From: an uncultured Anaerolineaceae bacterium
Lineage (GTDB): Bacteria > Chloroflexota > Anaerolineae > Anaerolineales > UBA4823
Assembly: GCA_964606085.1 (NCBI GenBank)
Contig: CAZSFD010000011.1
Span: 17,763-81,762 of the forward strand
DNA length: 64,000 nucleotides
Direction: 5' to 3'
Position numbers and translations under genes: made by a program. The number at the start of each line of letters is the position of its first letter. The stretch's first letter is position 1. The notes beneath the pieces are model-generated. The model did no database searches and was not told where the DNA came from. It was given only the letters and a program-made list of their open reading frames with translations. This document shows positions 22,049-61,412 of the stretch, in pieces.

Positions 22049-23746
22049 TTATGGGGTGTTTTCGACCTGTGTGTTTTGCAGGGGCAGGGTATCTTTCAGG
22101 TCGGCGTAGACGACCAGCCGTTTGAGATAGCGCTTGAATTCGTCGTTCCAGTCGGTGCAGGTGATCAGGCTGATTTGGGGGTTTGTGGTGGGGTGGGTCA
22201 CGGCTAAATCGCCTTCTTCAACGACAACTTGTTCGCGTACGGTGTAGGTGTACAGGTTTTCTGCAGTGTAGACCTGGATGACATCGCCGGTTTTGAGTTG
22301 GTCGAGATAGCGGAAGGGGCCGTTTTCGCCGACCAGGGTGACATGCCCGGCCAGCGCTGTGTTGCTGCCCAACCCCGGCCAGGAGGTATTGCCCAGCCAG
22401 GCGATCTCCTGTTTCAGGCCGGCGATCATCCAGCTTTCGCCGTCGAAAGGCACGTATTTGACGATAGTATCCACGTTTAGGGCGGGAATGGCCAGACGGG
22501 TGACGGGGCTGGTATCGAGGACGATGCCGGGTTCTGTTTCGGGCAGGGCGGTGGGGGAGGGGATGGGAAAATCGGGCAGTGCGCTGATTTCGGTGGGGGC
22601 AGTGAAGATGTACCCGGTGGTGTCTTCGGTGGGGAAGATGGGGGCGATGGCATAGCCGGCCATTTTTTCGGCGAGGTGGGTTGGGGCAATGGCGATGGGG
22701 AGGCGCGCCTCGGGCGAGCGCCAGAACCACCCACTGCCGGCCGCACCAACGACTGCCCCGGCGAGCAGTAAGGCGACTCCGGCAAGAAGGTAGCGGCCAA
22801 TTTGGCTTTGTTCTTGTTGGCGCGCCCACAGGGCATACCAGATGGTGAAGAAGCCGGCCAGCGCCGCCGCGCCTGCCAGGAAGAGCAGCGACCAGTCTAT
22901 GGGGTGGGTGGGATTTTCAAGCGGTTGGAGGCCGGTGCCAGGCAGCCCAGAGACGACGACGCGGTAGTTGGCGGTGGCGGTGCGGGTGTTGTTGGGGGCG
23001 TAGGTAAGGCTGATGCTGTTAACCAGGTTGACGGTTGCGTTGGCGGTGCTGTTGACGCTGGTTTCGATGGTGACGGTGACAATTTTACTCGGCAAGATTT
23101 CGCCGATCAGCACTGTTACGGCATGGTTCTGGCGGTTGATTGTTCCCTGGGTTGTTTTGGTGTTGCTGGTGATATCTATGGTGGTGGGGAAGGAATCGGT
23201 CAGGATGACATCTTGTGCGGGGGCCAGGCCGTTATTGGTGATTTTGACGATGAAGGTGATCTTTTGCCCGACGCGCGCTTCTGAGGGGTTGACGGTGATG
23301 GCGATGGTGGGGTTGGGGGTGATTGTTCCGGTGGCGGTGGGGGTGGGAGGGGTGCCGGTGGTTGTGCGGGTGGCCGTGGGTGTGGGTGTGGCGGTATCGG
23401 GTATTTGTTTGAAGATGAGCGGTAAGAATTTTCGAATGGCTGTGGCCGTGTGTGTGGGCGTTGCCGTGGGGGTGGCGGTCGTTGTGGCCGTCTGGGTGGC
23501 TGTGCCTGTTTCGGTGGGGGTGCTGGTAGATGTGGCCGTTCCGGTGGTGGTACCCGTGGATGTGGCGGTTTCGGTGGCCGTTGCCGTCGGCGTGCTGGTT
23601 TCGGTGGGGGTGGGGGTATCTGTGGCTGGTTCGGGTTGGCTGACGGCGCTGAATTGGGGGATGGCCGCGGCTGCGAACCAAAGCGCCAGGCCGAAGATCA
23701 CCACGAATAAAAAACGGGCAATGCGTTGATGATTAAGGGGAAGCAT
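22049..23746 (-). CDS. Sortase-substrate fusion: signal peptide, T/P-rich linker, DUF11-like domain, LPGTG + TM + basic tail, second TM, sortase catalytic domain
   Basis: LPGTG is encoded at 22931-22945 (CTG CCT GGC ACC GGC). It is followed by WSLLFLAGAAALAGFFTIWYALWA RQQEQ. The C-terminal domain has LAGH, SLITC (TLxTC-type Cys) and RLVV. Confidence 0.8.
   Translation of the reverse strand: MLPLNHQRIARFLFVVIFGLALWFAAAAIPQFSAVSQPEPATDTPTPTETSTPTATATETATSTGTTTGTATSTSTPTETGTATQTATTTATPTATPTHTATAIRKFLPLIFKQIPDTATPTPTATRTTTGTPPTPTATGTITPNPTIAITVNPSEARVGQKITFIVKITNNGLAPAQDVILTDSFPTTIDITSNTKTTQGTINRQNHAVTVLIGEILPSKIVTVTIETSVNSTANATVNLVNSISLTYAPNNTRTATANYRVVVSGLPGTGLQPLENPTHPIDWSLLFLAGAAALAGFFTIWYALWARQQEQSQIGRYLLAGVALLLAGAVVGAAGSGWFWRSPEARLPIAIAPTHLAEKMAGYAIAPIFPTEDTTGYIFTAPTEISALPDFPIPSPTALPETEPGIVLDTSPVTRLAIPALNVDTIVKYVPFDGESWMIAGLKQEIAWLGNTSWPGLGSNTALAGHVTLVGENGPFRYLDQLKTGDVIQVYTAENLYTYTVREQVVVEEGDLAVTHPTTNPQISLITCTDWNDEFKRYLKRLVVYADLKDTLPLQNTQVENTP
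23318..23626 (-). repeat. Thr/Pro/Ala low-complexity coding repeat (linker of the sortase-fusion protein)
   Basis: TDTPTPTETSTPTATATETATSTGTTTGTATSTSTPTETGTATQTATTTATPTATPTHTA...TPTPTATRTTTGTPPTPTATG. Confidence 0.8.
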
Positions 23747-31736: not shown

Positions 31737-32387
31737 CTATGGGCTGATCAGGCCTTTGCGGATGGCATATTTGACCAATTCCCCCCGGCTGTGCAGGCCC
31801 AGCTTACGCATCAGGTTCTCGCGGTGGCGGGCCACGGTGTGCTTGCTGATCGAAAGCATCTCAGCGATCTCCTCGTTCGATTTGCCCTCGGCCAGCACGG
31901 CCAACACCTCCTGCTCGCGGGCGGTCAGGCCGTCCATTTGGGCGGGCGGCACGTCGGTGGCGCGGCTGAGAAAATCGCTGACGAGCAGCTTGGCTAACGA
32001 TGGGTAGATGTAAACCTCGCCGCGATGCACCGATTCGATGGCGGCGATCAAGTCTTCAGGGGCGGCGCGCTTTGGCACATAGGCCGATGCCCCCGCTTGC
32101 AGCATCTCGAAGAAATACTGCTCATCTTCGTGGATGGTGAGGGCGATGATGGCGGTTTGCGGGAGGCGCTGCTTGAGCCGCCGGGTGGCCTCGATGCCTG
32201 AAATATCGGGCAGGGTGATGTCCATGATGACGATATCGGGTTGAAGCTGCCCGGTCATGTGGATGGCTTGTTCACCGGTGGCCGCCTCGCCGATGATCTT
32301 CAAATTGGGCTGGCTTTCCAGCAGCATACGCAGCCCGGTGCGCACCACGGCGTGGTCATCTACCAACAACAGGCGAATTTCATCCAT
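31737..32387 (-). CDS. NarL/FixJ-family response regulator
   Basis: LLVDDH, DIVIMDITLPDISG and a LuxR-type HTH (LTAREQEVLAVLAEGKSNEEIAEMLSISKHTV). Confidence 0.9.
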   Translation of the reverse strand: MDEIRLLLVDDHAVVRTGLRMLLESQPNLKIIGEAATGEQAIHMTGQLQPDIVIMDITLPDISGIEATRRLKQRLPQTAIIALTIHEDEQYFFEMLQAGASAYVPKRAAPEDLIAAIESVHRGEVYIYPSLAKLLVSDFLSRATDVPPAQMDGLTAREQEVLAVLAEGKSNEEIAEMLSISKHTVARHRENLMRKLGLHSRGELVKYAIRKGLISP

Positions 32388-33864
32388 GTTTTTCTCCGTT
32401 TTCTCCCAGGGCGACGGTCACTTCGACCAGGGTGCCATGCCCCGGCGACGAGGCGAGCAGGCATTGGCCGCCGATCAATTCGGCGCGTTCGATCATCCCG
32501 AGCAAGCCCCAGCAAGGTTGATTTTTTTTGTTGTAGCAGGTTTCATCCACGTCGAATCCGCAGCCGTTATCTTCGATGCGCAGGGTGATGTCGTGGTTGA
32601 CCTGGATCAGCGTCACGCTGACGTGGCTGGCCTGGGCGTGACGGGCGGCATTGGTGAGGGCCTCTTGGGCGATGCGATACAGCGCTACGCGGATTTCCTC
32701 GGATAAGGCCGGGATATTGCCCCGGCTGCTGACCTGGATTTGCAGCCCCGAACGCTGCGAAAATTCGTTGGCATACCAGCGCAGGGCGGCCAGCAGGCCC
32801 AGGTCGTCGAGTTGGGGCGGGTGCAGGCCGGTAACGAGGTGCTGCAACTCGTCCAGGCCGGTTTTGACCAGTTTTTCGAGTTGGGCGGCCTGCTGCGCCA
32901 CGCGTTCGGGGTGGGTGGGGATGTTTTCGGACACGCCGCGCAGTCCCATACCGAGGGCGGTGAGCGTCTGGCCGAGTTCATCGTGCAGTTCGCGGGCGAT
33001 GCGCTGGCGTTCGTTCTCCTGTGCTTTGACGGTCTGGTGCAGCAGGGCAGCGCGCAGTTCTTCCAGGCGGTGCTGTTCGGCGTTTTGCTCCTGGCGCATT
33101 TTTTCCAGTTTTTGGCTGGTTTCCACCTCGAAGGCGCGCAGCGAGCGGACGATGGCTGCCGCTGCCCATGCCGCTGTGACGGCACGGAACACTTGCACCG
33201 GAAAGCCAAACCAGGCCAGAAAGGTTGTCGTGTTGAGGTAGGACGAGGGGAACAGCGGCGACGGCGCGGTGAATAACTGTCCGAGGCACCCATAGAGCAA
33301 GAATGCCAGCGCCGCCAGCGTGACATCGCGCCGGATGCTCTGCATCCCGCTGGCCGCGAACTGATCGCGTTGGACGATCAGCCCCCGCGCGACCAGCAAT
33401 CCGCCAGGGATGGCCAGGGCGTAGCGCGTGTAGACATCGGCTGTCACCACCCAATCGGCCCGGCCCTGCAAACTCCAGAAAATCCACCCCAGGCCAACCA
33501 GCCAGATCGCCGTTACGACGCCAAGCATGATCGTCCGGCGTTTCAGGTGGGCGGGGCCGATCAGCAGGCGCACGCCGAACGTGACCAATAATAAAAACGA
33601 GACCGCTAACAGAATGACGCGCAGGGGGGCGATCCAGGCGATGGCCGGTTCGACTTCGCGGTGATCGTGGATCAGCACGAACATCTCCAGCCACTCGTGG
33701 CCGCCGTGGATCAGGCCAAACCAGGCCAACGGGCGCAATGCCTGGGCATATTCGAGTGACGAAGTACGGCCTGTCTCGATCAGGATGGCGAAGCCCATGC
33801 TGAAGAAAGACAGGCCGTAGAGGAAGTAGACGAGGATGATATTTTGGGTGAAGAAATCAGCCAT
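32380..33864 (-). CDS. NarX-type sensor histidine kinase with a polytopic membrane sensor domain
   Basis: ~250 aa with 6-7 hydrophobic helices (includes HGGHEWLEMFVLIHDH). The HisKA_3 H-box is ARELHDELGQTL. The HATPase has an N-box and GHGTLV. Confidence 0.9.
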   Translation of the reverse strand: MADFFTQNIILVYFLYGLSFFSMGFAILIETGRTSSLEYAQALRPLAWFGLIHGGHEWLEMFVLIHDHREVEPAIAWIAPLRVILLAVSFLLLVTFGVRLLIGPAHLKRRTIMLGVVTAIWLVGLGWIFWSLQGRADWVVTADVYTRYALAIPGGLLVARGLIVQRDQFAASGMQSIRRDVTLAALAFLLYGCLGQLFTAPSPLFPSSYLNTTTFLAWFGFPVQVFRAVTAAWAAAAIVRSLRAFEVETSQKLEKMRQEQNAEQHRLEELRAALLHQTVKAQENERQRIARELHDELGQTLTALGMGLRGVSENIPTHPERVAQQAAQLEKLVKTGLDELQHLVTGLHPPQLDDLGLLAALRWYANEFSQRSGLQIQVSSRGNIPALSEEIRVALYRIAQEALTNAARHAQASHVSVTLIQVNHDITLRIEDNGCGFDVDETCYNKKNQPCWGLLGMIERAELIGGQCLLASSPGHGTLVEVTVALGENGEKHG

Positions 33865-33872
33865 ATCTGGCT

Positions 33873-35051
33873 TTATTTTTCAGGCGCGCCTGATTTAATC
33901 CATTCAATGACACTTTGCAGTTCTTCATCGGTCAGTTGGCCGGGGTGGCTGCCGGCCTGTTGAATTTGCACCAGGATGCTGTTATCGGGGTCGCCAGGGA
34001 TGATGCCAGGGCCGCTGTTGCCTTCGGCCAGGGCATCCTGGTAGGTTGCCAGCGAATAGCCGCCAACCTTTGTCACGCCGTGGCAGGTGGAACAGCGGTT
34101 GCGGAACAGGCCCTCGTAGTTGCCCGCCCACGAGTTGGCTGAGACGCCCTCGCCGAGGGTGGGCGTGGGTGCAACTGTGATGGTGGGCCGCGGGCTGGGC
34201 GTGACCGGGGCAAATACCTGCGCCGTCTCGCCCTGCGGCACCGTGGTGATGGCGGTGCTTTCATAGCCGAGGAAGAAATAGCTGAAAATGCCAAAGCCGA
34301 TCACGATCACCGCGGCGATGGGGGCGTAGATCATCTGGCGCTTGCGCAGCACCGCCGCAGGGATGGCTTCCTTGTGACTGGCCTCGATTTCGGCCAGTTG
34401 CGCCGGGTGCTCGTCTTCCATCTCGTGGCGGGTCATCTGGCCGGTGAAGATGCTCTTGTTGAACATCTTGATGTGGACGTGGTAGAAGTGCCACAGGATG
34501 ATGGCTGCCACGGCCAGCACGGCCTCTGCTCCGTGGGCGGCTTTGGCCGCAGGGATGGCCTCGCCGGGCAGGAAGCGGGTGGACAGCACCGGGTTCCACA
34601 TCAGGAAGCCCGTCAGCGCCATCAACACCGTTCCCCACACCACCGCCAGGTATTCAGCCTTTTCGGCGTAGTTGAACTGGCCGTATTGGGCGTGCTCTTT
34701 GCGGATGCCAAGATAATAGGCGATGTCCTGAAAAACATGCTTGATGTCATCCAGCCAGGGCATCATCGTCCAACGGGCGCGCAGCACGATGATGCGGTAC
34801 AGCAATTCCAGCACATGATACAGGCTGACAATCAACATCACGATGGCAGCCCAGTGATGGATGACACGCGTCCCTTCGATGCCGCCGAACAGGCGCAGGA
34901 AGAACAGGCTGATGGGTGACTCGGCGAACTTCTGGATCAACCCGGTCAGGCCGAGCAGCGAGAACGAGACCAGGAACACGCCATGTTGGATGCGCTGGCT
35001 GAGGTCGAAGCGCTGGTAGGTTTGGGGCGAGGCGGCGTGATGCTCACTCAT
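33873..35051 (-). CDS. FdnI/HydC-type cytochrome b fused to an extra TM helix and a C-terminal monoheme c-type (Planctomycete-cytochrome-C-like) domain
   Basis: Start at ATG 35051 (MSEHHAASPQTYQRF...). There are four helices with conserved His (IQHG, IHHWAA, AAHGAE, WHFYHVH), a fifth TM (MIYAPIAAVIVIGFGIFSYFFLGY), a T/P linker, then NRCSTCHG...IIPGDPDNSILV. Confidence 0.8.
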   Translation of the reverse strand: MSEHHAASPQTYQRFDLSQRIQHGVFLVSFSLLGLTGLIQKFAESPISLFFLRLFGGIEGTRVIHHWAAIVMLIVSLYHVLELLYRIIVLRARWTMMPWLDDIKHVFQDIAYYLGIRKEHAQYGQFNYAEKAEYLAVVWGTVLMALTGFLMWNPVLSTRFLPGEAIPAAKAAHGAEAVLAVAAIILWHFYHVHIKMFNKSIFTGQMTRHEMEDEHPAQLAEIEASHKEAIPAAVLRKRQMIYAPIAAVIVIGFGIFSYFFLGYESTAITTVPQGETAQVFAPVTPSPRPTITVAPTPTLGEGVSANSWAGNYEGLFRNRCSTCHGVTKVGGYSLATYQDALAEGNSGPGIIPGDPDNSILVQIQQAGSHPGQLTDEELQSVIEWIKSGAPEK

Positions 35052-36450
35052 GGCGGGCCTCCTCGCCGAGTTGGGCGGGTTCGTCGGGTGGAACTGGGTC
35101 ATCGCTGAGGGGGCTGGGTTTTTCTGGCGGGGATGCCTCTGTTGGGATTTCTGCAGGCGGTGTAGGGTTTTCCCTGGCCGTGTCAGGCGGCATGGCAGCC
35201 TGATCGGGTTCGAGTGGCCCGGTTGCATCTGCTTCGGTGGGAATGGCGTCGGGTTCGGGTTGCGGGGCGGCAGGCTCTTCAGAGGCCGGGGCGTGCGGCT
35301 TGCGTGGCAGGCGGTTGATCACCCGGCGGCTGGCATCCAGCACTACCATCACCCCCATGCCGCCCAACACCAGCGGGATGAAGAATTTGTAGAACAGGTC
35401 TACATAATAGACGATGGGGTATTTTTCGGGCGAGGGGTAGTAGTGCGACATCCACGAAGCGGGGAAATCGGACGTGGCATCGGGGTGGCAGGTCTGGCAG
35501 CGCGCCAGCAGGTTTTCGCGCACTTGCAGGCCCTTCTGCGGGTCATCGGTGCGCAGGATTTCGTGGACGCCGTGGCAGTCGTAGCAGACGGGCTTATTGG
35601 TTTCAGCGTCAGGCGACTGCTTCTCGAAGATCATCACTGTCGTGCCGTGAAAATCGGCCACATAAGTATCGAGGACTTCGGTGGTCAGGCCGTACTTCGC
35701 CATGCGCGTGGAGTCGGTGTGGCAGTTGGCGCAAATCTGCGGCGATTGCAGGCGGTAGGCGGCGGTGGTGGGGTCGCCAATGTTGTGGACGCCGTGACAG
35801 TCAATGCAGGTGGGCACGTCCAGGTTGCCTTCGGTGAGCGCCGCGCCATGCACGCTGGCGGCATATTTCTCGTAAATGGCGCTGTGGCATTTGGCGCAGG
35901 TTTGCGGTATCCACAGGTGCGCTTCGGGCAAAATTTCATTTGTTTCGGGGTTGGTAAGGCGCTGCACGGCATGGGCGCTGTGGCAGTCAGTGCAGGCGGC
36001 GGCCTCACGCTTTCCGGCGGCCAGGGCCTGGGCGTGGACGCTGTCGGCGGCCTGGCTGGCCTCGCCGCTGTGGCAGAAGGCGCAGCTTTCGTTCAGCTTC
36101 AGAGTCACTTCGCGCCCATCCTGGGCGCTGAAGGCCGGGTGCGGGTACGCCCCCACGTCGCGGTGGCACTGCACGCAGGCGTAGCCTAACGCACCGTGGA
36201 CGGAATTGGTGTGTTCGAGCGGGTCTACGAACAGGTCGAGCGTGCTGCCATCGCCGAGCGGCATGGTCTGGCCAGGCTGGCCGTGGCAGCTCAGGCAGGT
36301 TTCGTCGCTAATCGAGAGTGGCGCGGGGGTCGGTTCGGCGGCCTGGGGCAGCGGTGCGGCACGAACAGGGATCGCCAGGATCAGCAGGCTGCTTGCCAGC
36401 AAGATCACGCCGGATAGGAGGGGGAAGAATTTGGGGATGGTGAGGTGCAT
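35044..36450 (-). CDS. Nonaheme c-type cytochrome with C-terminal TM anchor and Pro-rich tail
   Basis: Signal peptide and 9 CXXCH (CLSCH CVQCH CAFCH CTDCH CAKCH CIDCH CANCH CYDCH CQTCH). The TM is FIPLVLGGMGVMVVL. Confidence 0.9.
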   Translation of the reverse strand: MHLTIPKFFPLLSGVILLASSLLILAIPVRAAPLPQAAEPTPAPLSISDETCLSCHGQPGQTMPLGDGSTLDLFVDPLEHTNSVHGALGYACVQCHRDVGAYPHPAFSAQDGREVTLKLNESCAFCHSGEASQAADSVHAQALAAGKREAAACTDCHSAHAVQRLTNPETNEILPEAHLWIPQTCAKCHSAIYEKYAASVHGAALTEGNLDVPTCIDCHGVHNIGDPTTAAYRLQSPQICANCHTDSTRMAKYGLTTEVLDTYVADFHGTTVMIFEKQSPDAETNKPVCYDCHGVHEILRTDDPQKGLQVRENLLARCQTCHPDATSDFPASWMSHYYPSPEKYPIVYYVDLFYKFFIPLVLGGMGVMVVLDASRRVINRLPRKPHAPASEEPAAPQPEPDAIPTEADATGPLEPDQAAMPPDTARENPTPPAEIPTEASPPEKPSPLSDDPVPPDEPAQLGEEARHE

Positions 36451-36461
36451 ATTCGATTTCC

Positions 36462-37142
36462 CTACTCGCTTTTCTCGCCGCTCAGGCGTTCATATTCTTT
36501 GGCGTGGAACTGGCGCATCTCTGCTTCGCTCAACTTGCCGGTGAACATGCTCAAATTCAGGCGTTCAATGTGGACGTGGTAGATATGCCACACCATGATG
36601 AAGATGGTCGCCACGATGGCTTCGGTGCTGTGGGCCAATTTCGCCGCTGGCACAATCCCGCCGGGGAAAAGCTGCGTGAACTGCACCGGGAACCAGATAA
36701 TGAACCCCGAAATGACCATGATCCCGATGCCGAAGAACAGAAACCAATAGGTGATCTTCTGCTCGAAGTTGTAGCGGCCAAAGGCGGGGCGGTCTTTGCG
36801 CAGGAAGAGCAGGTACTTGAGCATCTGCCAGGCATCGCGCACGTCTTGCACCGTCGGCAGCATGTCGCCGGGCAGTTTGCGCCGCACCAACAGGATGATG
36901 ATCACGGCCAGGTGGTAGATCACTTCGAGCGTCAGCACGATGGCGGCGACGTGGTGGATATTGCGGATCAGTTCCACCTGTTCGGGCGTGGCGAGCAATT
37001 GCTGGCTCCAGGCGGCCTCACGGTATTTTTGCGGCAGGCCGGTCAGCAGCAGCACCACGAAGCTCAGGATCAGCAGGGCGTGTTCCCAGCGCTGCGCCAG
37101 CGAGAAGCGCCAGAAGGTGCGTTCTTGCGTAATGGTTTTCAT
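36462..37142 (-). CDS. FdnI/HydC-type (Ni/Fe-hydrogenase b-type) cytochrome b
   Basis: Start at ATG 37142 (MKTITQERTFWRF...), an ATGA overlap with the upstream stop. Four helices with His ligand candidates (RWEHA, IHHVAA, LAHSTE, WHIYHVH). Confidence 0.8.
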   Translation of the reverse strand: MKTITQERTFWRFSLAQRWEHALLILSFVVLLLTGLPQKYREAAWSQQLLATPEQVELIRNIHHVAAIVLTLEVIYHLAVIIILLVRRKLPGDMLPTVQDVRDAWQMLKYLLFLRKDRPAFGRYNFEQKITYWFLFFGIGIMVISGFIIWFPVQFTQLFPGGIVPAAKLAHSTEAIVATIFIMVWHIYHVHIERLNLSMFTGKLSEAEMRQFHAKEYERLSGEKSE

Positions 37143-38305
37143 GGCAGGTTCCTCCGCACGCGCCCGGCCGTGTTGCGGACGATTTGCAGCAGCACATAAA
37201 TGACCGAGGCCCACAGCACAACCGGCATGAACCAATCGTAGAACGATTTGACGTAAAACACGAACGGCGTGCGGGCCAGGCTGATCTCGTTGTGGCCTGT
37301 CCAGGCCGCGGTCCAGTTCGGGCCTGCGCCGGGGTGACACTCGGCGCAGGTGGCTTGCAGGTTGGCCGGGTTGACTTTCGAGGCCGGGTCGTCGGTCTGA
37401 CGGATGTCGTGGATGCCGTGGCAGTCGGTACACACGGCGCTGTCGTGCCAGATGGCCGGCCAGCGTGCCTTGTAGACGGAAACATCCACGCCATGCCAGG
37501 AGAGCTTGTAGATGTCGTAAACATCGGCTGGCAGGCCATATTGGCTCATCATGACTTCATCGGCGTGACAGTTGGCGCACATTTCGGGGGTCTGCACGCG
37601 GAATTGCTCGGTGCGTGGGTCTTGAATATCATGCACGCCGTGACAATCGGTGCAGACGGGCACATCGGGGTTGTCCTCGCCGATCAGGGCCGCACCATGA
37701 ATGCTCTGCTTGTAGGCATCCACGATCTCGCCGTGACATTGAGCGCACGTCTCCGAGATGTGGGCGCGCGGCTCGTTGGGCGGGCGCACGTCGTGTGCGC
37801 CGTGGCAATCGGTGCAGACCGGGGCTTCGGGGTGGCCGGAAGCGGCCATCTGGGTGTGGATGCTGTCCTGGGCCTTCTCGTAATTGTTGGAATGGCACTT
37901 CTGGCAGGTCTGGTAGTAACCGAGGGAGAGTTCGCGGCGGCTGGTGTAGGTCTGCGCCGGGTGCGGGTAGGTGGTGATGTTGTTGTGACACGCCTCGCAT
38001 TCGATTCCGAGCGAACTATGGATGGAATGCTCGATCTCGTCGGCTGAGATCACCAGCGAAAGCGTCTCGCCGCTGGGCAGGGCGATGTCTTTGACCTTAT
38101 CGGGGTTGCTGTGACAGCCCAGGCAGTATTTTTCGGTTTCCTGTGCGGCGGGGGCGGTCACATCGGCGGCGCGGGCGGGCGTGGAAATACCAAGCAAGAC
38201 CGCGATCACAAGGAAGGTAAGACCGACAATTTGTGGCGCAAATCTCAGATTTGCGCTACGTTTGGCGGCAGCTGGAAACCGCGCTTTGGAGGGGTTACTT
38301 GCCAT
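37139..38305 (-). CDS. Nonaheme c-type cytochrome with C-terminal TM anchor
   Basis: Start at ATG 38305 (MASNPSKARF..., signal anchor). 9 CXXCH (CLGCH CEACH CQKCH CTDCH CAQCH CTDCH CANCH CTDCH CAECH). Paralog of 35044-36450. Confidence 0.9.
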   Translation of the reverse strand: MASNPSKARFPAAAKRSANLRFAPQIVGLTFLVIAVLLGISTPARAADVTAPAAQETEKYCLGCHSNPDKVKDIALPSGETLSLVISADEIEHSIHSSLGIECEACHNNITTYPHPAQTYTSRRELSLGYYQTCQKCHSNNYEKAQDSIHTQMAASGHPEAPVCTDCHGAHDVRPPNEPRAHISETCAQCHGEIVDAYKQSIHGAALIGEDNPDVPVCTDCHGVHDIQDPRTEQFRVQTPEMCANCHADEVMMSQYGLPADVYDIYKLSWHGVDVSVYKARWPAIWHDSAVCTDCHGIHDIRQTDDPASKVNPANLQATCAECHPGAGPNWTAAWTGHNEISLARTPFVFYVKSFYDWFMPVVLWASVIYVLLQIVRNTAGRVRRNLP

Positions 38306-38506: not shown

Positions 38507-39739
38507 TCACTTCTCGCCATCGAACAATGGCAGCAGCTTGACGCCCAACGTCAGCAGCAGCAGCGCATAGCCGATGATCCCCACCGCCACGCCCCACTCC
38601 ACCAGCGACGGCCAGTATTCCCCGGCGGGCAACTGGTACAACGTCCCCGGCGAATAGGCCACCGGCACGAACAACCCGCTGACCGTGATGTTCCAGCGGT
38701 GGGTGATGATGCCGAGCATGCCCGAAATGCCGCCGATGACGAGGAAAAGCGGCGAACGGTTGAAGCGCGGCGTCAGAAACAGCACCGCCGGGACGATGAT
38801 GCCCAGGCCCACTTCGCCCACCCAAAAACTGAAATTGTAGGGCGTCTGCTGGTTCAAAATGAACAGCGACTCGCTCACCAGCGGCGTGCGGCCATAGTAG
38901 GCCACCGTGGCCAAATCCCAAAATTTGATGTAGCCGTAGGCCAAAAAGGCCAGCCCGCTGAATTTGGCAATCGTGCGCAGTACATCGTGCGGCACGCGGC
39001 GCTTGAGCGTGATCCATTCGACCACCAGGGCAATCGTCATCGTCAGCGCCGGGCCGGCCGCCACCGCCGACAGGATGAACATGATCGGCATCGAGGGCTT
39101 GAACCAGATCGGGCGCGACTTGACGATGCCGTAGGTGGCTCCGAGCGAAGATTGATGCAGCAGCGAAATGCCCAGCCCCAACACGGCCAGCGCCGGGGCC
39201 AGCTTGTGCAGCAGGTGAGCGGCTTTGCGGATGTAGTCAATGTAGCGCACCCGGTCGAAGATTTTGGCCTCGGCGATCACCGGCAAAAACTCCACCACCA
39301 TGATCACGAGATAAATGGTGATGCACCAGGTAATTTCCCACAGCACCGAGTGGACGTTCCAGAACGCCCACGGATGCCAGAAGCGGTCGGGGCGGCCAAT
39401 ATCCATCACCAGCGTCAGCAGCGCCGACGTGTAGCCGATGAAGCCCACCAGCACGGCCAGGCGCACAATGGATTGGAAGTGTTTCAAGCCAAAGATGTAG
39501 ACGATGGCCGAAAGCGTGAACGCGCCCGCCCCCAGGGCGATGGACGACAGATCAATGGTGATCCACAACCCCCAGGGGACGAGGTCGCTCATATTGGTGA
39601 TCCATAGCCCCTGCCAGAACACATCCACGGCGGCCACCAACCCGATGGCCAGGCACAACCCGATGAAGGCCAGCCATGCCAGCATGGCCGGGCTGAGACG
39701 CGGCAGCGTGAAACCTTTGCGCGGCGCCAGGGTGGTCAT
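38507..39739 (-). CDS. NrfD/PsrC-family polytopic quinone-interacting membrane subunit
   Basis: 410 aa with ~10 hydrophobic helices. The N-terminal pattern VPWGLWITIDLSSIALGAGAF is typical of the NrfD family. ATGA overlap with the NrfC-like gene. Confidence 0.85.
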   Translation of the reverse strand: MTTLAPRKGFTLPRLSPAMLAWLAFIGLCLAIGLVAAVDVFWQGLWITNMSDLVPWGLWITIDLSSIALGAGAFTLSAIVYIFGLKHFQSIVRLAVLVGFIGYTSALLTLVMDIGRPDRFWHPWAFWNVHSVLWEITWCITIYLVIMVVEFLPVIAEAKIFDRVRYIDYIRKAAHLLHKLAPALAVLGLGISLLHQSSLGATYGIVKSRPIWFKPSMPIMFILSAVAAGPALTMTIALVVEWITLKRRVPHDVLRTIAKFSGLAFLAYGYIKFWDLATVAYYGRTPLVSESLFILNQQTPYNFSFWVGEVGLGIIVPAVLFLTPRFNRSPLFLVIGGISGMLGIITHRWNITVSGLFVPVAYSPGTLYQLPAGEYWPSLVEWGVAVGIIGYALLLLTLGVKLLPLFDGEK

Positions 39740-40566
39740 AGGCCCTCCTTTGGCGGGATATAGTAGACGTTGGCCTCCGTCCCCAGGTCTTCGCGCAGGC
39801 GGATGGTGGCGTGGGCGCGGATGTACTCGGAAACCGGGCTTTGTTCGTCGTTCAGGTCGCCAAAGACGCGCGCCCCCACCGGGCAGACGTTGACGCAGGC
39901 GGGCGTGGCTTCGGCGTCTACGCCGGGCATCAGGCCGCTGCGCAGGCCGTCATCAATGCGGTGAATGCAGAAGGTACACTTTTCCACCACACCGCGCGGC
40001 CGGCGTTCGACCTCGGCGATGCCCCAGGTGGGGATGTAGGGATTTTCCTCGCTGCGTTCCTGCCAGTTGAAGCGGCGGGCGTCGTAGGGACAGGCCACCT
40101 GGCAGTAGCGGCAGCCGATACAGCGGTCGTAATTCATCACCACCAGCCCATCTTCGCGGTGGTAGGTAGCTTGCACGGGGCAGACCTCCACGCAGGGGGC
40201 GTTCTGGCAGTGCAGGCAGGGCCGGGTGAAGAAAAATTCGCGCCCGGTGGATGTTTTCTCGTTGACGATGATGTTCCAGGGTTCGCCAGAAAGGACATCG
40301 TTGGTAGCGCTGCACGCCCGCTGGCAGTAGCCGCAGCCGATACATTTATCCAGGTCAATTGCCATGCCCCAACGGAACGGGCCGTGGCCGTCGCCATGCC
40401 CGTCGCCGTTGATGGAAAGTTGCTCGCTCTTGAGTTGTCCGAACGGCGAGAGCGGCCCGGTGGTAACGACCTGCGCCAGCAGCACCGAACCCGCCGCGGC
40501 CACCCCCACTTTGAGAAAATCACGGCGGGTCAGATCGACGACGACTTTGGTCTTTTTCTTAGCCAT
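39736..40566 (-). CDS. Tat-exported 4x[4Fe-4S] ferredoxin subunit (NrfC/PsrB-like)
   Basis: Twin-arginine signal LTRRDFLKVGVAAAG. Cys clusters CIGCGYCQRAC, CLHCQNAPCVEVCP, CIGCRYCQVACP, CTFC...CVNVCP. Confidence 0.9.
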   Translation of the reverse strand: MAKKKTKVVVDLTRRDFLKVGVAAAGSVLLAQVVTTGPLSPFGQLKSEQLSINGDGHGDGHGPFRWGMAIDLDKCIGCGYCQRACSATNDVLSGEPWNIIVNEKTSTGREFFFTRPCLHCQNAPCVEVCPVQATYHREDGLVVMNYDRCIGCRYCQVACPYDARRFNWQERSEENPYIPTWGIAEVERRPRGVVEKCTFCIHRIDDGLRSGLMPGVDAEATPACVNVCPVGARVFGDLNDEQSPVSEYIRAHATIRLREDLGTEANVYYIPPKEGL

Positions 40567-41563
40567 TCTCTTCCACCTCCACCAGCCGGATACGCTTGCT
40601 GACTACCCAGGCTGCCGCGCCGCCGGTGATCAGGCCGACAATCGCGCCCTGCGCCAGGCCGGTATACAGCCGCACCGTGCCAGCCGCCTTCAATTCGGCA
40701 ATCGCCTGCTCCTGCTCGCTGACTTTTTCTTCCAGCGAGAGCATTTCGGCGGTGTTGATGGTTTGCGTGATCTGCCCGGTCAGCTTGACGATCTCGTCGC
40801 GCGTGTGGACGGTATCCTGGTGGCAGCCGATACACGCATCCGAGCCGACGGTGAAGGTATGGCCGGTGGGGATCAGACCGCCGATGGGGTCATCCATACG
40901 CGGGCGGGTATACATGTGACAGTTGGAGCATTCCAGGCCGGCGTTGGCGTGCGTGCCGTGCGTAAAGGCCGTTCCGCTCTCTTTGTGGCAGTTGGTGCAT
41001 AGCTCGGTGACGGTGGGCGCGACCGGCTTCTGGGCGTGCGGGTTGTGGCAGGCCTGGCACTGAATCCCTTGCTGGCCGTGAGCGCTGGCGCGCCATTCGT
41101 CGGTGGTGTTTTTGTGACAGGTGGCGCAAAGGTTCTCATCGGGGGTGAGCGGCATCTGCGTGGCGGGGTGGCCTGGTTGGAAAGGCCCGTGGCACGATTC
41201 GCACGTCACGCCCTCTTCGTTGTAAGCGCCGTTGGCGGGGTTGAAGCCGGTGGTGTGGCATTCCAGGCAGGCCACCTGCGAGCCGAGTTCGCTCCAATCG
41301 CGCTGGAAGATGGGTGAGGAGAAGGCATGGGCGTGGCGGGTTTCCTGCCAATCGGTGTACAAATCTTCGTGGCAACTCTTACAGGATTCTGACCCGGCGT
41401 AGGATGCGACCGTCGGCGTTGCATCGGCGGCCACATCTGCCGCCTGGGCAGGCTGCGCCTGGCTCAACATGGCTCCTGCCGCCACACAAACTGCAAAAAC
41501 CAGCATAAATGCCAACCCGCTGCGTCCCCAAATTTTTGATAGCGTTAGCCATTTTCGATCCAT
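40559..41563 (-). CDS. Octaheme c-type cytochrome with coiled-coil and C-terminal TM anchor
   Basis: Signal peptide and 8 CXXCH (CKSCH CLECH CESCH CATCH CQACH CTNCH CSNCH CIGCH). The C-terminus is ...EEKVSEQEQAIAELKAAG...LAQGAIVGLITGGAAAWVV SKR. Confidence 0.9.
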   Translation of the reverse strand: MDRKWLTLSKIWGRSGLAFMLVFAVCVAAGAMLSQAQPAQAADVAADATPTVASYAGSESCKSCHEDLYTDWQETRHAHAFSSPIFQRDWSELGSQVACLECHTTGFNPANGAYNEEGVTCESCHGPFQPGHPATQMPLTPDENLCATCHKNTTDEWRASAHGQQGIQCQACHNPHAQKPVAPTVTELCTNCHKESGTAFTHGTHANAGLECSNCHMYTRPRMDDPIGGLIPTGHTFTVGSDACIGCHQDTVHTRDEIVKLTGQITQTINTAEMLSLEEKVSEQEQAIAELKAAGTVRLYTGLAQGAIVGLITGGAAAWVVSKRIRLVEVEENG

Positions 41564-41759: not shown

Positions 41760-42989
41760 TTATGGTTCTGGGGTTGGCTCGACCGGTTCGGGCGTGGGCG
41801 GCGTGTGGAAGCCGCTGGCCTCGGCGATCATCTCTTCGTCGGTGAAGTCGAAGCCGCCGGTGTGACAACTGCGGCAGGCAAAGTTCAGGCCGATTTGCGC
41901 GCCGCCGTTCTCGCTAAATTGTTCGATTTGGGTGGGGTTGATGGCAACCTGGTGGGTGCGCACGTCGCCGGTGAAGAGGGCGGCATTGCTCCAGGCGCTC
42001 TGGATGGCATAGGGCATGTGGCAGCTTTCGCAGGCCACATTCTTCATACTTTTGCGATATTGCGCCTCGCGCCAGTGACAATCGGCGCAGGCCGTGCGGG
42101 TGGCCGGCTGGCTGGCCTGGCGCAACTGCTCCACCCCGGCGTGCGGGTCGTGGCAGACCACACAGTCTATGACAGTGTGCTTGCCGGGAAAGAGATCACC
42201 GTAGGTATCCTGATGCTGAATGAAACCGTCGGCGATTTCGATCTCGCTGGAGCGGTGACATTGGTCGCACAGGGCGCTGCTGCGGTCAATGGTGGGATGC
42301 ACCATGGTCGGCGCGGCGACGTGCAGGCTGCCCGGCCCGTGGCAGGCTTCGCATTGCACGCCTGCCTCGGCCCAGGTTCCGGTCACGCCAGGCAGGGCGG
42401 CCGGGTTGTTGCTGCTCGGCCAGGTGGTGTAGCCGGTGGCATGGCAACTGCCGCAGGTGTTCGAGAGATTCTCCTCGCCGCTATGAAAGGCTACCCAGCC
42501 AGCCTGCGCTTTGACTTTGGAATTGGCGTAGTTGTATTGGCTGTCACCCGCGGTGATGATGTAGCCATCGGCGTTGGTGAAGACGGCTTTCCATTTGTAG
42601 CCGCCGATCACGTAGCTGATGTTTTCCCAGGTGCTTCCGGCGGGCGGCTCGGTCAACTGCGTGAAGGGATAAGCCGGGGCCTGGCCGCCTTCTACCTTGA
42701 CCATATTCCAGGCATGGCCCGATTTCATAAACATATCATACGTTTCTTGGTGGCATCCGGCGCAGGTTTGCGACCCCACGTATGTTGCGCCAACCGGGCC
42801 GGGTGGGCCAGCTTCGCCGGGCGCGCCGGCTGGCCCGGCGGGTCCTTCTTTGCCCTCTGGCCCTTGTGGGCCTTCCGGCCCAGCGGGTCCGGAAGGCCCC
42901 ATTGGTCCCACAGGACCGGTCTCACCGGCGCAGGCGGCCAGCAGCAGCGCCGTAAGGATGAGCAGGATACCAAATAAGATTCTTTTCAT
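41760..42989 (-). CDS. Lipoprotein octaheme c-type cytochrome with N-terminal collagen-like (Gly-X-Y)16 stalk
   Basis: SD GAGGAG fits ATG 42989 ([20 protein letters not shown]; an alternative ATG is at 42995). The lipobox is LLAAC, followed by 16 uninterrupted G-X-Y. There are 8 CXXCH (CAGCH CGSCH CEACH CDQCH CVVCH CADCH CESCH CRSCH). The tail is [14 protein letters not shown]. Confidence 0.9.
42783..42926 (-). repeat. Collagen-like triple-helix repeat coding region (16 x Gly-X-Y)
   Basis: [48 protein letters not shown], read directly from the reverse strand. Confidence 0.9.
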
Positions 42990-43019
42990 GGGCATTCTCC
43001 TCGCACTCGTTGTGAGCGT

Positions 43020-60053: not shown

Positions 60054-60536
60054 ATGGAACGACGTATATCAAAATCGGTTTTCGTCCTGGCGCTGGTTGT
60101 GGTGATGCTGGCGCTCTCAGCCTGCGCGGCGCAAAACACGCCGATGCCCGCAACCGCTATACTGAAACCTGCTGATGCCACTGAGCCCGTTGCCGCCACC
60201 GATGAGCCAACGGCACTCCCCGAAGCCGAGCCTACCGCCGCCCCGGTGGATGCTGACCTGGTCAGCTTTGCCAGCGACGTGATGCCCATTTTGCAGAATA
60301 GCTGCTGGAAATGTCATGGCGGTGATAAGACCGAGAAGGGCTTTGATGTCGGCAGTTATGCCACGCTGATGGCTGGTTCTGAAAAGGGTGCGATGGTCGT
60401 GCCGGGGGATGCCGCCAATAGTAAGTTTTACACATTAATCGAGCAAGGCAAGATGCCGAAGCGAGCCGATAAACTGCCCGATGATCAAATCCAGTTGATA
60501 CGCGATTGGGTCAACCAGGGCGCTTTGGATAACTAA
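60054..60536 (+). CDS. Lipoprotein monoheme c-type cytochrome (Planctomycete-cytochrome-C-like domain)
   Basis: SD GGAGG and lipobox LALSAC, followed by a P/A/E linker. The cytochrome domain reads CWKCHG...VVPGDAANSKFY and resembles the C-terminal domain of 33873-35051. Confidence 0.8.
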   Translation: MERRISKSVFVLALVVVMLALSACAAQNTPMPATAILKPADATEPVAATDEPTALPEAEPTAAPVDADLVSFASDVMPILQNSCWKCHGGDKTEKGFDVGSYATLMAGSEKGAMVVPGDAANSKFYTLIEQGKMPKRADKLPDDQIQLIRDWVNQGALDN

Positions 60537-60592: not shown

Positions 60593-60680
60593 AAGCGGGA
60601 CGATATGACCGTCATGCTGCGAATGTGACCGGTCATGGTGACTGCTGGCACATGCGCTCCATGCGTTGTGGGGGTATCCT

Positions 60681-61412
60681 ATGGACGGTCAGAATGAAAT
60701 TCTGCAGGAGTGCGAAATGGATGGTTTACTGCTCGGTTTAGCCAACGGAATAACCTGCGTGGCCTCGTGCGCCCCGGTGATGATCCCGCTCTTTCTGGGC
60801 GAGGGGCGGCGTGTGCAGCAAAACGGCTGGCTGCTGGCCCAGTTTTTGCTCGGACGCCTGGCGGGGTATCTGCTCTTCGGGGCGCTGGCCTGGGTCACCG
60901 GGCGGCTGATCTTCCAGGGCAGTGGGCCATCGGCGGTGGTGTTGGGCGGCGTCTCGCTGCTGATGGGCGGATTGCTGCTGCTCTACGGGTTGAGTGAATT
61001 TATCGGGCTGCCACAACCCCTGAAGTTTGCGCTGGCCGGTGTGCCACAAGATTTATCGGCGGGGCATTCACCGTTGGCCTGCCCGGTTCCGCCGCGCCAG
61101 GTGCGCCAATGGCTGCGCTTCGCCCCGGCGCTGTTCCCGCTGGCGCTCGGCTTCCTCACCGGGCTGAATCTGTGCCTGCCGTTCATCGTCGCCTTCACCG
61201 GGGCCGCCGGGCAAGCATCGCTGCTGGGCAGTTTGTTGTTCTTTGCTTCGTTTTTTGTTGGGACGGCGGTCTTTTTCCTGCCGATCCCGTTTGTGGGCGC
61301 TTTCCGACGCGTGCAGGGGTTACGCACCATTGGCAAGTTCGCCGCTATTTTTGTGGCCGTGTACTATCTCTACACCGGCCTGATGACCTTGATGGGAGGG
61401 TTGATTTCATGA
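60681..61412 (+). CDS. Polytopic membrane protein with CxxxC in TM1 (DsbD_2/CcdA-like, uncertain)
   Basis: GLANGITCVASCAPVMIPLFLG plus about six hydrophobic helices. The start is uncertain (60666 TTG, 60681 or 60717 ATG). Confidence 0.5.
   Translation: MDGQNEILQECEMDGLLLGLANGITCVASCAPVMIPLFLGEGRRVQQNGWLLAQFLLGRLAGYLLFGALAWVTGRLIFQGSGPSAVVLGGVSLLMGGLLLLYGLSEFIGLPQPLKFALAGVPQDLSAGHSPLACPVPPRQVRQWLRFAPALFPLALGFLTGLNLCLPFIVAFTGAAGQASLLGSLLFFASFFVGTAVFFLPIPFVGAFRRVQGLRTIGKFAAIFVAVYYLYTGLMTLMGGLIS

Follow-up and report, generated by a model that had tools for sequence, protein, structure and literature searches.

In sediments, digesters and sludge, Anaerolineae occur in large numbers, and they have many multihaem cytochromes; the question at stake is how they link their quinone pool to the outside. 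Jormakka et al. 2002 is said to place the C-terminus of the cytochrome b subunit FdnI in the cytoplasm. In Geobacter sulfurreducens, CbcL consists of a 9-haem domain and a HydC/FdnI-like b domain (PMC6295460), while the 7-haem CbcA, which has a C-terminal anchor, partners the four-TM dihaem CbcB (bioRxiv 10.1101/2021.04.15.440034). Both CbcL and CbcBA have been described as quinol oxidases for extracellular acceptors. Tethered c domains are known from the membrane-anchored cytochrome c_y, which is held on a linker (PMC7876108). The only related remark met in the literature concerned cbcB-cbcA fusions in Chloroflexi.

The window analyzed here is a stretch of 64,000 nucleotides from an uncultured Anaerolineaceae bacterium (GenBank assembly GCA_964606085.1, contig CAZSFD010000011.1, positions 17,763 to 81,762). 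On its minus strand, an ORF at 33873..35228 holds a gene (33873..35051) whose 392-amino-acid translation, matched by Pfam PF01292 and PF07635, consists of four parts: an FdnI-type dihaem cytochrome b, a fifth transmembrane helix (TM5), a Thr/Pro-rich spacer and a PSCyt1-type monohaem c domain with a CXXCH motif. The start at ATG 35051 chosen in the original prediction was right, as a GAGGAGG ribosome-binding site 5' of this codon, its overlap with the stop of the preceding multihaem gene (ATGAGTGA), the N-termini of homologues and independent 392-aa gene calls all agreed. The identical product was called in two independent assemblies, JGI 3300043177 and Logan SRR12686701. The TM5, linker and CSTCH sequences quoted in that prediction were found exactly where they had been placed when the coordinates were checked. 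Pfam domains, homologues and the two assemblies together confirmed that the added helix and c domain are a real part of this cytochrome b.

The frequency of the fusion was also surveyed, as had been proposed. All 120 best homologues carried both PF01292 and PF07635, and in species-representative genomes a relative was encoded by at least 526 matching stretches. The 80 listed of these at least 526 matches were all Chloroflexota MAGs; among the relatives seen there was no cultured host, and all were metagenomic. The literature on PSCyt1/PF07635, on Anaerolineae multihaem cytochromes with NrfD and on Chloroflexi cytochrome b clusters did not describe the fusion. It represents a conserved, undescribed protein family which varies a known theme, that of b-c respiratory modules, and does not introduce a new principle. 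Separate genes for TM5 plus the c domain, a sign of recent fusion, were also considered and rejected: the matches of 130 to 200 aa started within the b domain or TM5 and are apparently fragments from contig edges.

The cytochrome b core (residues 14-228; 34368..35012, minus strand), comprising TM1 to TM4 and a cytoplasmic amphipathic end, was delimited from Pfam, 1KQF chain C and a paralogue. Ni_hydr_CYTB (PF01292) matched residues 14-197 with 45.5 bits, above the cut-off of 30.1, and the best solved relative was 1KQF chain C, which is FdnI (profile match E 3.5e-12, residues 12-236). The presumed b-haem ligands H23, H65, H173 and H188, one in TM1, one in TM2 and two in TM4, were invariant in a 22-sequence alignment. 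They correspond to H18, H57, H155 and H169 of FdnI, the last with a one-residue offset. With 1KQF chain C as top solved relative and all four haem histidines kept, the FdnI-like character predicted for the core was borne out. The scores for the formate dehydrogenase gamma models TIGR01583 (57.7 vs cut-off 115.85 bits) and NF007558 (42.7 vs 339 bits) remained below threshold, and no molybdopterin subunit was found among the neighbours, which were multihaem cytochromes. A second, plain cytochrome b of 225 aa without fifth helix or c domain is encoded at 36462..37139 (minus strand; PF01292, 61.5 bits). The two proteins aligned without gaps over residues 10-228 at 36% identity; there the plain paralogue ends, and the fusion extends for another 164 residues.

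Five hydrophobic segments were detected in the fusion (residues 21-39, 63-81, 134-152, 168-186 and 243-261), and no more than five in the multi-copy relatives checked. TM5, assigned by hydropathy and charge bias to residues 239-262 (34266..34337, minus strand), had the highest hydropathy of the five segments (2.23) and was preceded by RKRQ on the inner side. In the homologues, the 15 residues after TM5 contained on average 0.58 K+R compared to 8.95 in the preceding loop. Over the whole protein, K+R amounted to 16 inside vs 4 outside in the window protein and to a mean of 19.7 inside vs 3.8 outside in homologues, the inside exceeding the outside in 85/85 proteins. This bias placed the N-terminus and loops 2-3 and 4-5 inside and the tail after TM5 outside, thus indicating that the c domain lies on the outer face, as originally predicted. 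The Thr/Pro-rich spacer follows (residues 263-307, delimited by alignment; 34131..34265, minus strand). Its first approximately 30 residues were conserved in the 22-sequence alignment, with E264, T266, T284, P287 and P289 invariant, and the distance from E264 to the CXXCH motif was nearly fixed (56 residues in 26 of 35 orthologues, range 52-57). TM5, spacer and tail together have the layout of a membrane-tethered monohaem cytochrome c, with one anchor helix, a linker and an outward c domain. A full-length AlphaFold model based on 22 close homologues had a mean pLDDT of 56, with spacer and c domain below 50, and was unusable for haem distances.

The c domain itself occupies residues 308-392 (33876..34130, minus strand; Pfam and AlphaFold). 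The search with the PSCyt1 model that had been suggested found members in both places, with 31.4 bits for the fused domain (PF07635, residues 320-362, cut-off 22) and 41.9 bits for a stand-alone lipoprotein elsewhere in the window (E 1.5e-10); the Pfam model Cytochrom_C gave 23.7 bits with the fused domain. Modelled alone, the c domain was four-helical with a pLDDT of 93.9. Foldseek comparison of this model with the PDB returned nothing significant, and haem-free models may be distorted: the top matches were TsdA, FoxE, the cd1 c domain, c-553, caa3 and c_z at E 0.38-2.8 and TM of approximately 0.4, and those to c_z, c-553 and the caa3 c domain were at E 0.8-2.8. The haem-attachment motif CSTCH (C320, C323, H324; 34080..34094, minus strand, coordinates verified) was invariant in 60/60 fusions, as was the corresponding motif in 88/88 lipoprotein relatives.

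The stand-alone protein (60054..60536, plus strand; 160 aa) was identified by Pfam and alignment as a PSCyt1 lipoprotein of His/Met type with a CWKCH motif (60303-60317) and Met134 (60453-60455). Its signal peptide ends in the lipobox LSAC with Cys24: MERRISKSVFVLALVVVMLALSAC. A lipobox-like motif was present in 86 of the 88 lipoprotein relatives. The stand-alone form also showed a weak match to the Leptospira LIC11213 lipoprotein family. Small cytochromes c of single-membrane bacteria are anchored by a helix or by lipid, and this protein is lipid-anchored likewise. It was 29% identical to the fused domain (E 2e-13) and, together with the PSCyt1 match in both, this confirmed that the same domain type occurs free and fused in the window.

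The two copies differ, however, in their presumed sixth haem ligand, a difference that had been missed in the original prediction. His369 of the fusion (in SHPG; 33945..33947, minus strand) aligned with Met134 of the lipoprotein, that is, with the Met of the PSCyt1 Met-Pro motif located about 45 residues past CXXCH. At this position all 60 aligned fusions had His and all 88 lipoprotein relatives had Met, with an invariant adjoining Pro, so that His-Pro replaced Met-Pro throughout the fusions. An equivalent His was found in 120/120 fusion homologues by motif scan and inspection, and the fused c domain of the window contains no Met. Since the invariant His369 is the only candidate sixth ligand, the fused domain is probably His/His-ligated and of low potential, although a five-coordinate haem or a Lys ligand may be considered instead. 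As His replaces Met as the presumed sixth ligand, the fused and the free PSCyt1 domains are likely to differ in redox potential. The earlier suggestion that the lipoprotein acts as a lateral shuttle for the fusion was not supported, because the lipoprotein family lacked conserved gene linkage with the cytochrome cluster (no synteny in three long contigs, the contexts being varied and none adjoining the cluster); moreover, its presumed distal ligand is Met instead of the His of the fused domain.

Taken by itself, the c domain had 3278 matches in a library of representative proteins. Its copy number in b-fused proteins was variable: clusters with 1, 2, 3, 4, 5 and 6 c domains numbered 11, 7, 6, 4, 1 and 2, respectively, and nearly all scored domains were of His type. 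Linkers between tandem c domains were variable Pro/Ala/Thr sequences. A multihaem gene lies immediately upstream of the six-copy variant, and in some relatives the multihaem part is joined completely to the rest in one protein of 829 aa with 10 haems. In related loci, a PSCyt1 domain of His type also ends a NapC/NirT-type cytochrome. Related loci, but not the window, also encode a PetD-like protein that has five or six c domains and ends in PSCyt1, mostly of Met type.

Among the structural genes of a conserved cluster, the fusion gene comes last; the cluster is ordered 8-haem, 8-haem, FeS, NrfD, 9-haem, b, 9-haem, b::c, kinase and regulator, all on the minus strand in the window. This order was seen in the large majority of those of the 80 related loci whose DNA reached far enough. 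The cluster begins with an 8-haem lipoprotein cytochrome having a collagen-like Gly-X-Y stalk of 16 triplets (41760..42995; translation, Pfam Collagen). Its orthologues had 9-15 triplets in 32 of 35 cases and a lipobox in 41 of 44, and the comparison of stalk length with spacer length across loci was uninformative (Spearman 0.35, p 0.04) with the spacer almost constant. It is followed by a 334-aa 8-haem c-type cytochrome with a C-terminal hydrophobic segment (40559..41563; CXXCH count and hydropathy), a Tat-exported DsrO/QrcC-like 4Fe-4S subunit (39736..40566; Pfam Fer4_11, Tat signal; NCBIfam DsrO 201.8 bits vs cut-off 200) and an NrfD-family quinone-interacting membrane subunit (38507..39739; Pfam NrfD 114 bits). 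The best NCBIfam match of the latter was QrcD, whose score of 268.9 bits lies below the cut-off of 570.

Upstream of each of the two b genes lies the gene for a 9-haem cytochrome whose membrane anchor is C-terminal. The partner of the plain cytochrome b is a protein of 388 aa by gene call (37139..38305; Pfam, CXXCH count). That of the fusion has 468 aa, with a signal peptide, nine CXXCH motifs, matches to Pfam multihaem families, a TM helix at residues 352-370 and a 98-aa acidic, Pro-rich tail (35044..36450). The stop of this gene overlaps the fusion-gene start, and the pair was kept in nearly all related loci reaching upstream; the two genes are probably co-translated. Downstream, 8 nt past the fusion gene, begins a pair encoding a histidine kinase (HisKA_3, with a membrane N-terminal half) and a NarL/LuxR-type response regulator (31737..33864; Pfam, synteny), which accompanies the cluster in most related loci. 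A sortase-domain gene was also noted within the window; sortases are typical of single-membrane, wall-bearing cells.

As judged from its sequence, the fusion is the membrane subunit on the quinone side of a b-c respiratory module. The fifth helix takes the cytoplasmic C-terminus of its b core back through the membrane, and the spacer of about 45 residues then keeps the single-haem c domain at the outer face of this membrane. We consider it moderately probable that the c domain acts as a low-potential relay tethered to a quinol:cytochrome module of the CbcBA/CbcL kind, with net flow outward. In such a module, electrons would be exchanged between menaquinol and extracytoplasmic multihaem cytochromes, as in Geobacter CbcBA and CbcL. 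The 9-haem protein would be the direct partner of the outer b haem, a role more likely for it since the arrangement matches FdnH/FdnI and CbcA/CbcB. The fused c domain would then serve as a low-potential carrier on a leash, linking the membrane modules with cytochromes farther out; the envelope may have no closed periplasm in which soluble carriers would be retained. In relatives, two to six serial c domains might prolong the relay away from the membrane. Net electron flow is presumed, not established, to be outward, with quinol oxidation.

Electrons might also run the other way, which we regard as possible but rather unlikely. The module would then reduce quinone as FdnI does. Electrons taken up outside, whether from reduced iron, humics, a partner cell or another cytochrome, would enter by the c domain and the multihaem proteins and pass through the two b haems to menaquinone, which would be reduced on the cytoplasmic side; the module would thus act as a redox-loop arm that builds membrane potential. 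FdnI, the nearest solved relative, does reduce quinone in E. coli and has its four haem ligands kept here, and the adjoining FeS/NrfD pair most resembles Qrc, a menaquinone reductase. However, the characterized modules of a multihaem cytochrome with a dihaem b, CbcL and CbcBA, are those described as quinol oxidases. A low-potential His/His haem suits either direction and does not discriminate.

The original prediction had regarded the fusion as a hard-wired exit from the quinone site. The b-to-c fusion is real and conserved, while the fixed exit is only plausible, since the plain cytochrome b has no c domain and yet works with a 9-haem partner of this kind. On this account, which we find doubtful, the c domain would be permanently docked over the outer b haem as obligatory first acceptor, with the spacer as a structured strap. 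The near-fixed spacer length and its conserved first 30 residues are more in keeping with a defined strap or a docked state than with a free leash, and the c domain is covalently attached in every close homologue. Against this, the paralogous b of the same operon has a 9-haem partner of like kind but no c domain, the C-terminal anchor of the 9-haem proteins, like that of FdnH and CbcA, points to them as direct partners, and up to six c domains on variable linkers in relatives cannot all dock.

It is very unlikely that the c domain instead signals the extracytoplasmic redox state to the histidine kinase. Although the kinase and regulator genes come after the fusion gene in most related loci and the membrane half of the kinase has no known sensor domain, a c domain multiplied up to six times fits electron transfer, the domain also occurs on electron-transfer proteins of the NapC/NirT and PetD types, and in several loci the kinase lies elsewhere or is parted from the fusion by other cytochrome genes. 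That a missed stop or frameshift made one gene out of two, one for cytochrome b and one for a membrane-anchored cytochrome c, can be rejected with near certainty, given the identical product in two assemblies, the fused architecture of all 120 best homologues and an unbroken reading frame in the 80 listed genome loci.

A broader and more speculative proposal, which we hold to be improbable as it stands, is a 'beads-on-a-string' conduit in Chloroflexota. FdnI-type b proteins with one to six low-potential His/His domains on Pro/Thr-rich linkers, together with the collagen-stalked 8-haem lipoprotein, would carry electrons through the cell wall by hand-over, the c domain of the window being the founding unit. 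The one-to-six copy series suggests such a spanning of the cell wall by tethered small cytochromes. If true, it would be a third design of extracellular electron transfer beside porin-cytochrome conduits and polymerized cytochrome filaments. Since the fusion family is large, easily recognized and located where a highly conserved cytochrome cluster meets the membrane, its gene could be used as a marker of the pathway. The clean His/Met split between fused and free PSCyt1 domains leads to a direct, testable prediction of redox potentials, and a relay function would give the PSCyt1 domain its first defined role.

Compared with E. coli FdnI (1KQF chain C), the protein shares the four-helix dihaem cytochrome b and a partner with a C-terminal membrane anchor (FdnH in E. 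coli). However, the partner of FdnI is the FeS subunit of a molybdoenzyme whereas here it is a 9-haem c-type cytochrome, and FdnI has neither fifth helix nor c domain. Geobacter CbcBA and CbcL are likewise a dihaem b coupled to a periplasmic multihaem c cytochrome, with several modules per organism, and CbcA has a C-terminal anchor helix as do the 9-haem proteins of the window. The anchored 9-haem gene overlapping the b::c gene is an architecture of this type, a likeness by layout and published descriptions. In CbcBA and CbcL the multihaem c part either precedes the b part in the chain or is a protein of its own, and none has been described with a C-terminal fifth helix and a PSCyt1 monohaem domain. 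Their functions were shown genetically.

Covalent joining of an outward c domain to a membrane subunit of a quinone complex is also found in Bacillus QcrC, actinobacterial dihaem QcrC and Bradyrhizobium FbcH, but these belong to Rieske/cytochrome b complexes, a different b family. In Planctomycetes, PSCyt1 is N-terminal on large PSCyt2/PSD1 proteins, whereas here it is C-terminal on respiratory membrane proteins; CXXCH lies near the domain start in both, and in the fused form His replaces Met of the Met-Pro motif. Rhodobacter c_y, Bacillus CccA and CccB and Chlorobium c_z also have one anchor, a flexible Pro/Ala/Thr-rich linker and a small c domain on the outer face. These are, however, separate His/Met proteins of high potential serving bc1, oxidases or reaction centres. 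In the fusion, the c domain is not an independent protein of the c_y/CccA type, since it is joined to cytochrome b in 120/120 homologues: the anchor is TM5 of cytochrome b, the sixth ligand at the Met position is His and the linker is of nearly fixed length.

The minus-strand ORF of the fusion spanned 33873..35228. Its best start was the ATG at 35051, which overlaps the preceding gene's stop codon (ATGAGTGA), is preceded by GAGGAGG and agrees with the N-termini of homologues and with the 392-aa gene calls of two independent assemblies. Two Pfam domains scored above their curated cut-offs, a prokaryotic cytochrome b561 / FdnI-type domain (residues 14-197) and, as the original prediction had suspected, a PSCyt1 domain (residues 320-362). 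The plain cytochrome b paralogue (36462-37139, minus strand) aligned without gaps to fusion residues 10-228 at 36% identity and then stopped. The fusion is 164 residues longer: behind a short basic run (RKRQ) come its most hydrophobic segment (residues 243-261), a Thr/Pro-rich spacer and a CSTCH domain. The ORF, the two Pfam domains and the end of the paralogue at fusion residue 228 thus confirmed the predicted b-to-c fusion. Both domains were present in all of the 120 best database homologues, which shared 60-85% identity over the best local alignment and were mostly 393-403 aa long. When one genome per species was scanned by pattern, at least 599 stretches matched, of which at least 526 encoded relatives of the fusion; the best 80 of these relatives were all from Chloroflexota MAGs, labelled mostly Anaerolineae, Anaerolineales or Chloroflexia, with a few Thermoflexales, Herpetosiphon or Ca. 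Aquidulcis. As the same 392-aa product was also called in two assemblies, one a JGI metagenome and the other a Logan assembly from another run, a missed stop, a frameshift or any other assembly or annotation error behind the fusion was practically excluded.

The family profile matched E. coli FdnI (1KQF chain C) with an E value of 3.5e-12 over fusion residues 12-236. The FdnI haem ligands H18, H57, H155 and H169 corresponded to H23, H65, H173 and H188 (H169 and H188 being offset by one residue), and all four were invariant across the fusion family. Both termini of FdnI are reportedly cytoplasmic. Lysine and arginine numbered 16 in the predicted inner segments of the fusion versus 4 in the outer ones; among 85 homologues predicted to have five helices, the averages were 19.7 inside and 3.8 outside, with the inside count higher in all 85, and the first 15 residues past TM5 carried a mean of 0.58. 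The FdnI-like core and this charge bias therefore bore out the prediction that the fused c domain faces outside, which is what haem attachment requires. A further invariant residue, His79 (window 34815-34817, minus strand), lies in TM2, 14 residues past the outer haem ligand and at the level of the inner haem. It is shared with the paralogue, is absent from E. coli FdnI and might be part of the quinone site.

Pairwise comparison of the fused domain with the stand-alone lipoprotein (60054-60536, plus strand) gave 29% identity (E 2e-13) and placed His369 (SHPG) of the fusion on Met134 (KMPK) of the lipoprotein. When 60 fusions and 88 lipoprotein relatives were aligned, the CXXCH motif and the Pro after the ligand position were invariant in both groups, whereas the ligand position was occupied by His in every fusion (60/60) and by Met in every lipoprotein (88/88). 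Motif scan and inspection found His at the equivalent position in all 120 fusion homologues, and the fused c domain of the window contains zero methionines. In a weak alignment to cytochrome c6, the His369 position fell one residue off the axial Met. The AlphaFold model of the fused domain (149-row alignment) consisted of four helices with a pLDDT of 93.9; its PDB matches, to class-I-like cytochrome domains, were all weak (best E 0.38), with no close solved structure among them. From these comparisons we infer His/His haem ligation in the fused domain and His/Met ligation in the lipoprotein. His/His ligation lowers the potential by a few hundred millivolts relative to His/Met, implying a potential of the fused domain lower than that of the lipoprotein by this amount. 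A potential that low would be a good match for menaquinone and for multihaem partners with bis-His ligation.

The lipoprotein belongs to a family of conserved Chloroflexota PSCyt1 proteins of 155-175 aa (251 matches), with a lipobox-like motif in 86 of 88 aligned relatives. Three relatives on long contigs lay in differing contexts, two after a DUF2231 membrane protein and one near an ACIII-like cluster, and none of the three adjoined a b::c cluster. Given these varied contexts and the Met versus His ligand, the proposed lateral shuttle for the fusion was not supported, and shared domain ancestry is the sole tie between the two proteins. Two overlapping ORFs directly follow the lipoprotein at 60666-62620 (plus strand); the first encodes a DsbD_2 membrane protein (CcdA-like thiol-reductant transporter) and the second a membrane polyferredoxin (Fer4_5, NapH/NosR-like). 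The surroundings differ in two other genomes, where a DUF2231 membrane protein and a two-component system precede the lipoprotein.

The fusion is the last gene of a minus-strand cluster, which starts with an 8-haem lipoprotein bearing 16 collagen-like Gly-X-Y triplets (41760-42995) and continues with an 8-haem cytochrome (40559-41563), a Tat-exported, DsrO/QrcC-like FeS protein (39736-40566) and an NrfD-family subunit most similar to QrcD (38507-39739). The last three genes before the fusion encode two 9-haem cytochromes, each with a C-terminal anchor (37139-38305 and 35044-36450), and, between them, the plain cytochrome b. Among 80 related loci, the large majority of those whose DNA extended that far kept this order. 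The first pair was absent from two loci (L007 and L080) that kept the 9-haem/b::c pair, and in two others (L026 and L037) the 9-haem protein, b and c domains formed one polypeptide with 10 haems (829 and 783 aa).

The 8-haem lipoprotein runs from an LLAAC lipobox through the triplets into the 8-haem domain and resembles a cytochrome mounted on a rigid stalk about 12-14 nm long. Its orthologues had 9-15 triplets in 32 of 35 cases and a lipobox in 41 of 44. The JGI call (324 aa) starts too late, so that signal peptide, stalk and first haem motif are all missing from it. The second 9-haem cytochrome has a 98-residue acidic, Pro-rich tail past its anchor (residues 371-468; window 35044-35340, minus strand), predicted to be cytoplasmic since five K+R directly follow the helix; the first has only 15 residues there. 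Elsewhere on the minus strand, a 565-aa protein that combines DUF11 with a sortase domain at its C-terminus is encoded at 22049-23746. Sortases typically occur in single-membrane cells with a cell wall, a point relevant to the anchoring of all the cytochromes here. A 1939-aa ORF on the same strand (319-6138), in a stretch of higher G+C (0.64-0.66), starts with a zinc-ribbon-like CPKC...CPTC motif; at E 1e-5 or better, Pfam gave no match for it.

The 90-residue domain, used as query in an exhaustive HMMER search, returned 3278 matches, 355 of them at E 1e-10 or better, and the best were proteins with several domain copies. The same five-helix cytochrome b was joined through Pro/Ala/Thr linkers to tandem His-type c domains, five in one database protein (P0121, 830 aa) and six in two others (P0123 and P0125). 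The 150 best representatives included b-fused forms with one to six c domains, numbering 11, 7, 6, 4, 1 and 2 in that order; nearly all their scored c domains were His-type, and no Met-type multi-domain protein was attached to a b domain. A six-copy gene (locus L086, 8001-10745) overlaps the end of a 377-aa multihaem gene directly upstream and faces three more multihaem genes, and a Thermoflexales three-copy gene is located within a full cluster. Two further kinds of protein in related loci end in PSCyt1. One is a six-haem, NapC/NirT-type protein about 570 aa long, with a His-type domain in 39/40; the other, of 706 aa, has five or six c domains on a PetD-like membrane part (of the cytochrome b6f subunit IV type) and is mostly Met-type. 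Thus a tethered PSCyt1 domain ends three kinds of quinone-side membrane protein in these bacteria. The latter two genes lie between fusion and kinase in one related locus (L012, 11160-12914 and 14093-16213), with similar genes in about half of L001-L080, and are absent from that position in the window.

We lean towards a CbcBA/CbcL-like quinol:cytochrome module, in which the b subunit would bear its own haem-loaded, low-potential c-type carrier on the outer face. The tethered carrier would relay electrons between membrane modules and more distal cytochromes, with the 9-haem cytochrome as putative partner of the b subunit and extracellular electron transfer as a candidate role. Flow in the reverse, FdnI-like direction, towards quinone reduction, is possible but rather unlikely; this question is independent of docking. 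The 45-residue Thr- and Pro-rich spacer had a pLDDT below 50 in the full-length model. Its residues E264, T266, T284, P287 and P289 were invariant, and the distance from E264 to CXXCH was 56 residues in 26 of 35 orthologues (range 52-57). The spacer is therefore not a freely evolving linker, and its first 30 residues or more seem to follow a defined path or to bind a partner. The originally proposed 'hard-wired' exit from the quinone site, with a fixed, docked c domain, therefore survives as a rival, a doubtful one in our estimate. A HisKA_3 kinase (32380-33864) and a NarL-type regulator follow on the minus strand from 8 nt past the fusion gene, and that the c domain is a redox sensor for this kinase is very improbable. 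The hydrophobic N-terminal half of the kinase (about 250 residues, at least five segments) matched no sensor domain in Pfam. The kinase is kept beside the cluster in most related loci and may act as a sensor of the quinone pool or of the redox state of the membrane.

Both domains of the fusion are known families, and its homologues carry the automatic label 'cytochrome b subunit of formate dehydrogenase / mono/diheme cytochrome c family protein'. A literature search found no description of the b / TM5 / PSCyt1 architecture, of the His-type PSCyt1 domain or of the one-to-six series. Unions of b and c are familiar already from CbcL, QcrC and FbcH. CbcL unites nine haems and a HydC/FdnI-like b part in one fused protein (PMC6295460). 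Geobacter CbcA/CbcB comprise a multihaem protein with a C-terminal anchor and a four-helix dihaem b, and cbcB-cbcA fusions in Chloroflexi are mentioned in the same work (bioRxiv 10.1101/2021.04.15.440034). The 9-haem anchored protein beside a four-helix dihaem b found here has the layout described for CbcA/CbcB.
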